Notes under the pieces: generated by a model | What the model saw: only the letters and a program-made list of their open reading frames with translations | What the model was told of the DNA's origin: nothing | Databases searched by the model: none | Position numbers and translations under genes: made by a program | Source of the DNA: Octopus sinensis | Lineage: Eukaryota | DNA: 34,256 nucleotides | NCBI RefSeq assembly: GCF_006345805.1 | Contig: NW_021831708.1 | Span: forward strand, 1 to 34,256 | Direction of reading: 5' to 3' | Part shown: positions 658-25,530 of the stretch, one piece after another | Numbering within the stretch: position 1 is the first letter of the stretch | How the letters are laid out: each line of letters opens with the position of its first letter

Positions 658-1214
658 TACCTATTTCTTTATTACCCACAAGGAGCTGAACATAGATGGG
701 GACAAACATGGACAGACATAGGTATTAAGTCGATTATATCGACCCCAGTGCTTAACTGGTACTTAATTTATCGACCCCGAAAGGATGAAAGGCAAAGTCG
801 ACCTCGGCGGAATTTGAACTCACAACGTAACGGCAGGCGAAATACCTATTTCTTTATTACCCACAAGGGGCTGAACATAGAGGGGACAAACATGGACAGA
901 CATAGGTATTAAGTCGATTATATCGACCCCAGTGCTTAACTGGTACTTAATTTATCGACCCCGAAGGATGAAAGGCAAGGTTAAAGTCACCTCGCGGAAT
1001 TTGAACTCACAACGTAACGGCAGGCGAATAACCTATTTCTTTCCTTTATTACCCACAAGGGGCTGAACATAGAGGGGACAAACATGGACAGACATAGGTA
1101 TTAAGTCGATTATATCGACCCCAGTGCTTAACTGGTACTTAATTTATCGACCCCGAAAGGATGAAAGGCAAAGTCGACCTCGGCGGAATTTGAACTCACA
1201 ACGTAACGGCAGAC
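658..1214 (-). mobile_element. SINE family A, head-less trimer (3 x ~185 bp)
   Basis: Three tandem units TATTTCTTTATTACCCACAAGG...GAACTCACAACGTAACGGCAG starting near 662, 847 and 1034; units share private variants (AACATGGACAGACATAGG, GTGCTTAACTGG). Confidence 0.92.
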
Positions 1215-1736
1215 CGAAGGTCTTCGGGCTAATTGGATGTCTACCACATAACTTGTGTGTGGGGGTGGGGTTGCAGGGGATAGATCTGTCTGTCTGTCCT
1301 TAGACATTTTAAAAACTGTCTGTCATACGCTTTTGATATTAGCCAGATTTACGCGTCACTCGATGACTGTCTCAGAAGTGTCAGGAAGAGATATTTTGTC
1401 ACAGTAACGGTAGCACTATTGTAAATAAATACAATCGGAACTATAAACGGAATATACGAAATTTCGGACACACGTACACAGAGCAGGGCTTGCAAATGAT
1501 CAGTGCTGGAATGGAAAATAATTTCAATGAAAATGCATGTATATATATCAACACACTATCTATGGAAATTGTGGACAAAAACGAGGGATTCGACGTGTTC
1601 CAAGTAAAAGGAGGAAAGTGTATGAGGTTATGTCGCTAAAAGCAGTACCACTTCGCTCGACAAGTGTTTTTATAAGATATAATGAAGTAGAAGGCAGCGT
1701 GGCTTGCTGTTTTGAAAACGGAGTTGGGTTTCTTAT

Positions 1737-1889
1737 AAGTAGATTTACTAAGGGATGTGGACGATGCGGGTGGTCTGTAACGGCAGCGCTTTTATTGGGG
1801 CGGCGCTTTTGGGTTCTCGTGCAAGCTGTAGAAGCCCAGGGCAAATTTGAGGTTTGGCCCGGGCGGCATACCCTCTAGCTACACCACTG
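1737..1889 (-). mobile_element. Degenerate hAT-like MITE (CAGTGGTGTAGCTAG terminus)
   Basis: Minus strand starts CAGTGGTGTAGCTAGAGGG, similar to the terminus at 20538; the other end is decayed and no clean TSD is seen. Confidence 0.4.
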
Positions 1890-2379
1890 CTCCACATATG
1901 CCCTTAAATGAAGAGCTGGAGGAAGCCCAAATTCATGTGTGGAAGATTGTGTGTTCCGTTGGTTAGTGCAACATGTGGAGAGGCGCGTGCCTGTTTTTTT
2001 TTTTTTTGGTTTTTTTTTTAATCGAAAACGGGACGAAGATAGTTGGAGTTGCAGTGCCATATGTCTGTTCACAGACTGATGTAGCAATACATGGGACTTA
2101 GAAATACCAGATTCACAGGGAGAGAAATTGCTCGGCTTGTTAGATTTGCTCAACATGGGGGTAATACAAGAGTACAATATGTAACCCGATGGTATATGTA
2201 AGGTCATATAGATTCTAATGATAACCAAAGACAAACAAGTCCATCTAGAAGCTTTACCTCATTGAGGGAGCAAAGAAGAGGTCAGTCAAATTAGTGGGCA
2301 GTAATAATGGTCTCTTCAGAGCGTTCAGTCCGGAAAACAATTAGTAAACCAGTCGAAAAGAGAGAACAGCGGACGTGAG

Positions 2380-2574
2380 AAGACGCGGCAACGAAATAGA
2401 GACAACGGCAGCAGACACCAGAAGCGAAGACCTTAGCTGTTTCTGCTACAGGTTTTCACGTATCGCTATTCGCGGCTCTGGAACGATCAAAGAGGACACA
2501 AGTAAAATCGTCCTCTCGATCGTGCCACCAGTGTCAGAAACTGGCAATAAATGGAAAGCCGGGAGGTTACAACC
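2380..2574 (+). mobile_element. MITE-like repeat, copy 1 (AAGAYGCGGCAACGAA terminus)
   Basis: Body aligns to the reverse complement of 6249-6430 (CTGCTACAG...AATCGTCCTCTCG...GTGCCACCAGWGTCAGAAAYTGGCAA...CCGGGAGGTYACAACC). Confidence 0.7.
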
Positions 2575-2645
2575 ATCAATACAAAATCGGTTTGAGACCA
2601 CACTCAGCATCAAAATCAAGTCATCTTGATTTATATATATATATT

Positions 2646-3065
2646 TCTCTTTTTTCTCTTTTCTCTTTTACTTGTTTCAGTCATTTGACTGCGGCCATGC
2701 TGGAGCACCGCCTTTAGTCGAGCAAATCGACCCCGGGACTTATTCTTTGTAAGCCCAGTACTTACTCTATCGGTCTCTTTTGCCGAACCGCTAAGTGACG
2801 GGGACGTAAACACACACCAGCATCAGTTGTCAAGCAATGCTAGAGGGACAAACACAGACACACAAACACACACACACATACATATATATATATACATATA
2901 TTCGACAGGCTTCTTTCAGTTTGTGTCTACCAAATCCACTCACAAGGCATTGGTCGGCCCGGGGCTATAGCAGAAGACACTTGCCCAAGATGCCACGCAG
3001 TGGGACTGAACCCGGAACCATGTGGTTGGTTAGCAAGCTACTTACCACACAGCCACTCCTGCGCC
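2646..3065 (-). mobile_element. SINE family B, full length (tRNA head, internal TA/TG microsatellite, TAAAAGAG tail)
   Basis: Minus strand: GGCGCAGGAGTGGCTGTGTGGTAAG (A-box)...GGGTTCAGTCCC (B-box-like)...CAGTCAAATGACTGAAACAAGTAAAAGAG; close copies at 9862, 16918 and 28914. Confidence 0.92.
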
Positions 3066-22782: not shown

Positions 22783-23920
22783 AATGATGATGATGATGAT
22801 GATGATAATGCTGCTGCTGCTGCTGCTGCTGCTGATGATGATGATGAAGATGATGATGATGATGATGACAACAATCATATAATAATAAATAATGCAACAA
22901 TTGTTGCGATGCCGCTGACAACGACTTTCCACTACAACTACTACCATCAGCACTACCGCCACTAACACTGCCACAACCACCACCACCACCACCACCACCG
23001 CCATAACCACTGCCTCAACTACCATTCTTTTCAATAAATATTCTTTATGCCATTACCTAAAAAACTACGACAACCACGAAGACCCTGTGAATGTCCCAGC
23101 ATCGCTGCGGCTGGCCTCTTACCTTGGTAATAAACACAGCTATTATTTCTCACGACTATCACGACCACCACGACTACCACGACCACGACAGCAAAACAAC
23201 ATTTATTTTCTTATCCTTAAGGAGTAACATAAGTGGAGCAAGTAGCAACACTAACAAGCCCGAAGATTATCGCCGTTGCTATGATCAGTCGATATAATAG
23301 TTGCAGCAGTAGTGCAATGGAAAAGTAACAGCTGAGCCGTTGTGCCGTGTTGTTGATGTTGCTGTTGTTGTTGTTATTACTTTTGGTGGTGTGAGACTAT
23401 GAAGATAATAGAAATATTGGTTATAGCATTACTAAAAACAAACGTGGTGGTGGTGGCGGTGGTTGCTATCTATCGTGGCAGTGCTAGTGGCCGGTAGCTG
23501 TGGTCCTACTCACAGAACAAGAATTGCTGTGAGCTAATAATGTTACTTTTTGTTTTGAAAGTGAAACTGAAAGTTGCCGGAGCGATACACGCCTTCCTGT
23601 ATATTTTGAATGTAGTAGCAGCCCATTGCAATAACCGAAAAAGTGGTTGTAGCAACATGAACATCATCATAGTAGTAGTAGTAGTAGTAGTAGTAGTAGT
23701 GGTGGTGGTGGTGGTTCTTTTTGCTACGGTTAGGAAAGTAAAAGCTGGAAGTTACGTTTCTTCTCAGTTTTATTTTAAGGAAATAATCGCGTGTAATATT
23801 TGTGATATTATCAGCAGCGAAGCGGCAGTTGTAGTAGAAGCAGAAAAGCAGAAGTATTCGTAATAGTGGTGTTAATAGTATCGTAGGTAGGTAGGAAGGT
23901 GGTGATGGTGGTAGTTCGGC
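22783..23920. repeat. Trinucleotide low-complexity field (GAT, GCT, CAC, GTT, GTA, GGT)
   Basis: Direct reading. Confidence 0.85.
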
Positions 23921-24227
23921 TGTTTGTTTCTGAAGTTGAATTATCTAATAACGTCGGACCCCAACCACCTTGTTGTAATGGCGGTGAAACGATAGAAAGG
24001 CACTCCAAATAACATTCTAGGTTTAGATGTGTTCCTCAATATTCAGAGTTCTTATCCTGTCTTAGTCAACTTCGGTTTCTTTTCATCGCTTTTGGATCGA
24101 CACCACAAAAGCTAAAGTTTTCTGTTCAATCAACAATGCTCCTCCTTCCAGCAAATTTAAGGCATTGAACGAATGGAGCAAATTATTAAAATTGCTCCAA
24201 GTCATATGGGTTTGAATCAAATTATAT

Positions 24228-24673
24228 CGATTTCAAATTTTGGCACAAGGCCAGCAATTTCAGGGGAAGAGCTAAGTCGATTACATCGATCTCAGTAGCC
24301 TGTTGGAACTTATTTTATCGATCCCGAAAGGGTGAAAGGCGAAGTCGATTTCGGCGGAATTTGAACTCAGAACGTGAAGACGGACGAAATACTGCTAAGC
24401 ATTTCGCCCAGCCTGCTAATGATCCTGCCAGTTCGCAGCCTTTAGCTGGCTCCAAATTTTGGCACAAGGCCAGCAATTTTGAGGAAGGACGTACGTCGAC
24501 CACATCGACACCCACCGCTCAATTGGTACTCAGTCGGTACTTATTTTATCGACCCCGAAAGGATGAAAGGCAAAGTGGACCTCGACTGAATTTGAACTCA
24601 GAACGTGAAGACGGACGAAGTGTCGCTAAGCATTTTGTCCGGCGCGGTAACGTTTCCGCTAGCTCGCCACCTT
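24228..24673 (-). mobile_element. Two tandem old SINE-A copies
   Basis: CAAATTTTGGCACAAGGCCAGCAATTT begins both copies (near 24234 and 24453). Confidence 0.88.
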
Positions 24674-24729
24674 AAATCAGATTTTATTAAGTTCAGTTCA
24701 TACACGCATCAATTTTCCTTTTTCATATC

Positions 24730-24983
24730 CTAGAAATATATTGGGCTCTCACTTTGAAAACCTCTAGAAATATATATTTCTAGAAATATATTGGGTTCTC
24801 ACTATGAAGAAAAACTCTAGAAAAATATTGGGTTCTCACAGTGAAAAAAAAAATCTAGAAATATATTGGGTTTTCACTATGAAAAACTCTAGAAATATAT
24901 ATTTCTAGAAAAATATTGGGTTCTCACTATGAAAAAAAAAAAAAGCTTTAGAAATATATTGAGTTCTCACTATGAAGAAAAAA
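24730..24983. repeat. ~35-bp minisatellite (6 units) with two embedded 22-bp palindromes
   Basis: Unit CTAGAAAWATATTGGGTTCTCACTATG(A)n; TCTAGAAATATATATTTCTAGA at 24763-24784 and 24888-24909. Confidence 0.9.
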
Positions 24984-25350
24984 TACTTCAGATATAGCTC
25001 TAGCTGTTATTTAGCTCCAGGCCATCTCTGTTTGAGCATACCTACGAAGTTGTTTTTGTTTTTGTTTCTTAGAAGAATGTCCGTGCCTGCCTTGTCTATT
25101 GTGTAGTTTCCTTTCCTAAGACATTAGGTGTGATCATAGGGACATTTATTTGCTACTTTTAGGAGATCTACTGACCACCAAGCGGAGGCTTTGGTGTTCA
25201 TAATACTATTACTACATTCTCAGCAGATTAGCAGAATCGTCAGCCTGTCGAAAGAAATGCCTTGCAATATTTGTTTCATCTCTTCACATTCTGAGTTCAA
25301 ATACCACCGAAGTCGACCCGACCTTTCTTCCTTTCAGGTCGATAAAACAA

Positions 25351-25530
25351 AATACCTATTTCTTTACTACCCACAAGGGGCTAAATACAGAGGAGACAAA
25401 CAAGGACAGACAGACAGATTAAGTCGATTATATCGACCCCAGTGCGTAACTGGTATTTAATTTATCGACCCCGAAAGGATGAAAGGCAAAGTCGACCTCG
25501 GCGGAATTTGAACTCAGAACGTAACGGCAG
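25351..25530 (-). mobile_element. Head-less SINE-A unit inserted in an older plus-strand SINE-A (~25215-25600)
   Basis: Begins with junction remnant AATACC|TATTTC; the old copy resumes at AGTACCAA near 25529. Confidence 0.8.

Follow-up and report, generated by a model that had tools for sequence, protein, structure and literature searches.

SINEU of crocodilians is a short interspersed element (SINE) mobilised by a long interspersed element (LINE) of Tx1 type, Tx1-Mar. It has a target preference and forms tandems by sequential insertion; the target is Mariner-N4_AMi, the preference is common to SINE and LINE, and the tandem copies sandwich a target-site duplication (TSD) (PMC4494074). R1 of Drosophila forms tandems by repeated insertion at a regenerated target. 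In R1 and R2 the complementary DNA (cDNA) anneals to upstream target sequence, giving precise 5' junctions; both are autonomous elements of ribosomal DNA, specified by their endonucleases, and whole copies are spaced by a 14-bp TSD (PMC2718515). In R2Ol, downstream target sequence carried on the RNA anneals and sets the start of reverse transcription at a site fixed by the endonuclease, which the pairing refines; 4 nt of such sequence improve accuracy and 100 nt raise efficiency (PMC6795142). Squamate sSat arrays repeat part of a SINE in tandem, have a single longer unit at one end, reach 1,000 units and are more homogeneous when longer; they are ascribed mainly to unequal recombination, insertion at the same locus being only mentioned (PMC10702118). 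Dip, B2 and Ves SINEs have a large share of their copies in head-to-tail multimers, the origin of which is left open (PMC8466645); their units are full-length (PMC10702118). The subject here is SINE-A, a short, dispersed, high-copy element of Octopus sinensis, and its head-less multimers, analysed in a window of 34,256 nucleotides (contig NW_021831708.1, positions 1 to 34,256) and in genome G000. Octopus SINEs that already carry names include OK, OR1 and Twitch. OR2 is another (PMC4758252). An annotation of octopus repeats reports active L1-Tx1 elements and many unclassified SINEs, with dimers and nesting unmentioned in its available portions (PMC13282606).

Junctions and target sequences

The multimers of SINE-A are real, are made by retrotransposition machinery and are a variant of known target-primed insertion. 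Later addition of units into older copies is well supported. Probably, a young SINE is retrotransposed into the matching site of a resident SINE, guided by pairing between read-through RNA and the nicked target. Guidance of target choice by RNA is likely, the pairing itself being deduced from sequence patterns.

The consensus of SINE-A is 231 bp, built from 243 copies, and lacks a four-T run. The intact-head pattern has 36,173 matches in the genome. The same head and core occur with one young tail (B) and with three or more older ones (A1-A3). TSDs of 10-24 bp flank 46 of 81 full-length T-allele monomers. No tRNA is found in SINE-A by ARAGORN, nor a tRNA match in Rfam; motifs resembling A and B boxes are seen by eye, and the tRNA origin of the head read from them is tentative.

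In multimers the tail is joined to consensus position 48. The exact 22-mer junction has 31,246 matches in the genome, a number near that of the intact-head pattern, and its reversed control 0, and head-less multimers in fixed register, as claimed in a preliminary description of the window, are thus genome-wide. That description held the junction to be the only one; a second, at position 15 (AGAAACGTT), has 1,373 matches. Junction position is thus heterogeneous in part. The position-48 joint is also present in short-read contigs of three other runs, X3 (13), X5 (10) and X9 (16), and is therefore genomic and not a long-read artefact; an assembly artefact is ruled out in the same way. The parsed sample comprises 546 loci (1.78 Mb), chosen by pattern and lying mostly on contig C1, 30 of them picked for the position-15 junction. 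Most sampled multimers are dimers or trimers, with 111 dimers and 10 arrays of at least 5 units.

The bases next to young 3' ends were parsed at 210 ends, and they are predicted by a polymorphism of the tail. With sense SINE junctions set aside, GGTA comes next at 28 of 76 ends with the T allele and at 0 of 32 with the C allele (p=2e-5); AGAA comes next at 9 of the 32 C-allele ends and 3 of the 76 T-allele ends. In unique DNA, GGTA opens both TSD copies (14 of 38 T monomers having a TSD; window 8361-8382) and is therefore target sequence. T-allele junctions restart at 47-49 in 213 of 230 cases and at 14-16 in 4. C-allele junctions restart at 14-16 in 41 of 49 cases and at 47-49 in 6, with 30 loci picked for the position-15 junction. 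The junction acts as an insertion target, not as a template-jump point. Antisense insertions at the SINE's own GGTACTT site number 372. Sense GGTATTT is used about 80-fold more than antisense GGTACTT (31,246 vs 372), one base differing in the first seven; in this ratio the patterns differ in length, and internal junctions of long arrays inflate the sense count. A pattern for GGTA ends lying outside SINEs has 2,558 matches (control 20), a rough indication that includes mutated junctions, about 35 of the first 100 being SINE-like by eye. At G000:C1:103029937 a single 3' end is followed by GGTAGTAAAGAAA, as would fit insertion of the SINE into itself at a further, third GGTA site, located in the tail.

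Putative partner LINE

Tail B shares about 46 nearly identical 3'-end bases with a LINE family that makes up 13 of 30 loci with a zf-RVT domain. The GAAAT of the SINE 3' end is inherited from the LINE tail. One copy of the family carries an open reading frame 2 (ORF2) of 1,128 amino acids bearing endonuclease, reverse transcriptase (RT) and zf-RVT domains, besides an ORF1 that contains a CCHC knuckle (Pfam); the best PDB match of ORF2 is human L1 ORF2p (E 2e-68). An ORF2 with apurinic/apyrimidinic endonuclease, RT and zf-RVT, together with a CCHC-bearing ORF1, is a layout that we take to mark Tx1. From its ORFs and domains the LINE appears to be of Tx1 type, and it is the putative mobiliser of the young SINE. 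Seven clusters of Tx1-type families with related tails are present among the 30 loci.

Two other candidates were rejected. The LINE of window 1-65 has a tail less similar to tail B than that of the 13-locus family; (TATC)n-like repeats follow its 3' end in most of 20 loci (L086-L105), its pattern has 2,868 matches, and it is presumably a microsatellite-targeting family like Kibi or Koshi. A LINE with the whole 60-base tail was sought by a pattern of the tail without the SINE core, which gave 733 matches, the first 100 being nearly all SINE variants by eye. Another LINE family, at locus L343 (8170-8237), matches tail B in its 5' half, the main family doing so in the 3' part; tail B may therefore be mosaic or derive from a family outside the sample. 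A Tx1-type LINE also occurs in tandem at L336-L338 (G000:C9:76.60-76.63 Mb), where three copies of 3.57 kb with internal deletions lie between two full copies at 99% identity, and other LINE copies are closely spaced at several places.

GGTA follows 0 of 22 ends of the LINE family with the T-allele tail (some of them duplicates), against 12 of 20 TAA ends of the SINE; SINE and partner LINE do not share this target, and the 3' flanks of the LINE do not map to the SINE. A GGTA rule is thus absent from a LINE that has this very tail, and RNA is favoured over an enzyme as the source of the preference. It is rather unlikely that the same sequential insertion occurs with no RNA guiding, its site being set by the endonucleases of other Tx1 partners (a GGTA cutter for T-allele tails, an AGAA cutter). 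Such partners would not be out of place: many Tx1 elements are target-specific and SINEU is targeted in this way (PMC4494074), several Tx1-type families with related tails exist here, one of them bound to (TATC)n, and the order of events set out below agrees just as well. Besides the LINE ends, two observations speak against an endonuclease-set site: the roughly 80-fold preference for sense GGTATTT over antisense GGTACTT, the latter being present once in the same element, and the entry of young alleles into the start of the last unit.

Order of insertion

The last unit has an old tail in 62 of 175 multimers. Its divergence exceeds that of the first unit in 44 of 56 arrays with an old-tail end (0.099 vs 0.051), in 25 of 40 with a C-allele end and in 18 of 33 with a T-allele end. 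Old-ended multimers have a perfect TSD in 4 of 23 cases, old monomers in 4 of 18 and young monomers in 27 of 46 (p=0.002). At L143 4738-5129 the head has zero divergence, the last unit is 18% diverged and the TSD has two mismatches. In run X14, the flanks of which are 5-8% diverged, contigs with head and flank and contigs with old tail and flank are present both here and at window 12611-13160. In incompletely counted tables, position-48 joint contigs number 0 in X14, 1 in X13, 10 in X9 and 7 in X5, and position-15 joint contigs 4, 10, 1 and 5, respectively. These tables point to an earlier arrival of the old copy and to a recent spread of the GGTA junction. Dominance of the position-15 joint in the diverged X13 and X14, and of the position-48 joint in the close X5 and X9, suggests a lineage-specific target switch. 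Repeat annotation and age estimates in the Octopus sinensis genome mix differently aged units inside one TSD.

Retrotransposition of whole multimers from a few multimeric masters, with lengths then varied by unequal crossover and no insertion into resident copies, is decidedly unlikely. Last units are drawn from three old tail types and two young alleles, TSDs are old around old-ended multimers, and antisense insertions and GGTA-starting TSDs in unique DNA are left unexplained by it. It agrees with a consensus that lacks a four-T run, by which read-through of RNA polymerase III is possible, and with perfect TSDs at 9 of 17 T-ended multimers, as in young monomers; some whole-multimer insertions probably occur. 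It agrees also with the patchwork homogenisation of arrays of at least 5 units, in which the mean adjacent distance is 0.045. Homogenised tandem arrays of a SINE portion are the rule for most of the 10 arrays of this size and are untrue for the 111 dimers. The pattern fits a probable expansion of these arrays at the DNA level by later crossover; long-read polishing could contribute to their homogeneity. A multimeric master followed by crossover had been named in the preliminary description as the simpler alternative; expansion at the DNA level does explain the long arrays, and a single dimeric master fails against several last-unit subfamilies.

A one-event origin is highly improbable, and as a general route it is largely refuted. 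It would take the form, proposed in the preliminary description, of an RT jump from position 48 to another RNA 3' end, or of a loop cut, circularisation and rolling-circle copying. In folding the head hairpin forms (stem-pair p >= 0.997) with position 48 at the 3' edge of the loop, where the restart had been placed from the first. The 3' GAAAUA pairs with UAUUUC at 0.0 in intact monomer RNA and at p 0.38-0.53 only in head-less RNA. The probability that the complement would lie by chance so close to the restart, a few bases away, is about 0.003, and the GAAATA/TATTTC complementarity may lie behind the founding junction. Young heads on old-ended arrays would also fit an RNA-to-RNA jump. Adjacent units in 55 dimers differ by 0.093 vs 0.101 for random pairs (3.8% under 2%), which excludes a rolling circle for dimers, and a full head, which a circle lacks, opens 138 of 172 multimers. 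Among 317 young-first loci, 11 begin at 45-51, 8 of them following an unparsed tail and 3 being true truncations; no pile-up of stand-alone copies beginning at position 48 is present in these loci. These few true starts, the age of TSDs at old-ended multimers and GGTA in unique DNA tell against routine template jumping at a structured stop. The position-15 junction lacks such a complement. The Rfam search matched no ribozyme family and dimer units are unrelated, unlike what a retrozyme-like rolling-circle element would give.

Multimers in the window

With up to 2 mismatches allowed, the restart motif occurs 25 times in the window (0.92 expected), and Tandem Repeats Finder (TRF) reports tandem arrays of 168-226 bp at five of the loci. 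The tail ...AAAGAAATA is joined to consensus position 48 at 11 of the 12 junctions first listed (845, 1033, 4975, 8613, 8839, 12760, 12930, 16265, 16449, 18829 and 21051). The twelfth, 25356, is the edge of an antisense copy in an old SINE and not of a multimer; seven of the eight loci first counted therefore hold. Single TSD pairs, said to bracket whole multimers, are present around four of the seven, and none was found for 662-1214, 4765-5166 and 18609-18915. The SINE-A copies are as follows.

662-1214, minus strand: three young units (tail B, TAA), 5'-truncated; junctions 845 and 1033, the latter with a short tail duplication; GGTAG in unique DNA after the 3' end; no TSD.
4765-5166, plus strand: dimer of head and unit; junction 4975; no TSD.
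7146-7376, plus strand: full-length young monomer, 231 bp, CAA tail; perfect 15-bp TSD (7133-7147 / 7377-7391); starting reference.
8383-9023, plus strand: trimer (TAG); junctions 8613 and 8839, the latter coming after an internal inversion; 22-bp TSD starting AGGTAT (8361-8382 / 9023-9044).
12611-13160, minus strand: chimeric trimer of head, two young units and, past the junction at 12760, a last unit from an older subfamily whose tail differs; 21-bp TSD (12590-12610 / 13161-13181); both outer ends also held by diverged run X14.
16035-16633, plus strand: trimer (TAG, TAG, TAA); junctions 16265 and 16449; 24-bp TSD; body variant GAGCTCGAC common to the units.
18609-18915, plus strand: dimer, first tail deleted, second unit truncated; junction 18829; no TSD.
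20867-21282, minus strand: dimer of differing subtypes, a TAG unit followed by a CAA unit; junction 21051; perfect 17-bp TSD; AGAA after the last unit.
22275-22495, minus strand: old-subfamily monomer, tail A, of the same kind as last units of multimers.
25357-25530, minus strand: 5'-truncated young copy, antisense in an old SINE (25231-25346, plus strand) at the GGTA site GGTATTTTG; no multimer junction.
31701-31933, minus strand: full-length young monomer; 20-bp TSD.

The GGTA after the last unit of 8383-9023 is target DNA, because the TSD starts AGGTAT. Within the second unit of this trimer a 44-bp inverted tail copy (8779-8822) forms a perfect hairpin, with Rfam microRNA matches below threshold, and comes probably from a template switch. 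The 3' end of the trimer and its flank (8971-9156) are repeated in an inverted duplication at 7978-8157 (93%, 186 bp). No second allele of the window locus is present in G000.

Proposed mechanism

RNA-guided insertion into existing copies would proceed as follows. The last bases of the young subfamily, about 46 in number, are almost the same as those of an L1/Tx1-type LINE, its putative mobiliser. Transcripts of multimer loci would pass the first tail into the next unit (GGUAUUUCGUCUG...); reverse transcription would begin at the tail, and the downstream RNA would pair with the primer strand. In unique DNA about four matching bases are used: GGTA where the tail has the T allele, AGAA or TATA where it has the C allele. 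Position 48 or 15 of resident SINE copies is used far more often, and long homology would favour existing copies over four-base matches. The cDNA would anneal to the homologous head upstream of the nick, giving no second head and no new TSD, with the old head kept or overwritten. Each new dimer would become a new source of read-through RNA, and the junction would propagate itself. Arrays of at least 5 units, homogenised as described, would grow by unequal crossover or slippage.

Young alleles at 61-64 are carried by 8 of 25 A3 last units joined at 48 and by 0 of 13 joined at 15 (p=0.03), an entry to be expected of a template RNA that extended into a second unit. Heads of A3-ended multimers, at 0.103, resemble in age those of A3 monomers (0.082, p=0.63); they exceed young heads (0.058, p=0.004) in divergence. 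A simple overhang model, in which the old head is always kept, is insufficient in view of the head ages and of the alleles at 57-64 given below. The old head is apparently sometimes kept and sometimes overwritten.

Several observations weigh against RNA-guided insertion or limit its support. The excess of young alleles at 61-64 over A3 monomers is not significant (p=0.056). Derived alleles at 57-64 are common to first and last unit in 10 of 40 cases, below the prediction of simple overhang annealing. Heads of all old-ended multimers stand at 0.080, nearer young (0.058) than old (0.180), and A1-ended arrays (6 cases) carry young heads (0.059 vs 0.203); heads are thus often young, and an extra step of head replacement is therefore needed. 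TSDs of C-ended multimers (n=12) look old, at 0.075 mismatches per base against 0.031 for C monomers (n=11), above expectation. In the relatives 0 contigs span a locus, contigs breaking inside the SINE, and the pre-insertion monomer is deduced; the joint tables of the runs are the incomplete counts given above. Locus sampling was driven by patterns and mainly from contig C1. The partner screen covered 30 zf-RVT loci, and a GGTA-specific sister LINE is possible. Read-through transcripts are postulated, and a partner that cuts at GGTA is possible.

A wider reading, for which the arguments are about evenly balanced, is that this SINE lineage evolved RNA-guided self-homing. The sequence downstream of a source locus would serve as an inherited guide, by which an L1/Tx1 enzyme that is unselective in other respects is redirected to homologous sites; one founding junction would have spread to tens of thousands of loci, heads of older dead SINEs would have been overwritten, and a switch from AGAA to GGTA would have occurred in one recent lineage.

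Other repeats in the window

The 3' end of the (TATC)n LINE and the repeats unrelated to the multimers, the latter recognised by eye where stated, are as follows.

1-65, minus strand: 3' end of a Tx1-type LINE family sitting in (TATC)n; tail resembles SINE tail B.
2660-3065, 9870-10265, 11330-11640, 16920-17300 and 28920-29380: second abundant SINE-like family, about 400 bp, with internal (CA)/(TA) microsatellite, by eye.
4318-4440, 6540-6800, 13970-14280, 27305-27680 and 30470-30760: third family, tRNA-like head, by eye; the copy at 13970 is nested in an old SINE-A.
24779-24960: minisatellite, 38-bp.

Comparison with known systems

No description of these multimers was found in the literature covered, outside which most subscription papers and Repbase lie; supplements of PMC13282606 may list the family. 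Insertion of a head-less SINE into its own family, with targets linked to tail alleles, is undescribed for the SINEU, R1, sSat and Dip systems in the available portions of the papers cited for them. The multimers, from tens of thousands of events, amount to a natural experiment on the extent to which RNA-DNA pairing, as against the endonuclease, sets the target of an L1-type element, a question central to retrotransposon biology and to RNA-templated genome writing.

SINE-A differs from SINEU in that the target is its own family, the added units are head-less, no new TSD is made, and the preference tracks the tail allele of the SINE and not the LINE. It differs from R2Ol in that the pairing would choose among dispersed repeats instead of refining a fixed site. 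Compared with sSat, most loci are dimers or trimers, and the shared junction is present at tens of thousands of sites; a concrete route from an interspersed SINE to a satellite seed, the step left open in the sSat work, is thereby offered.

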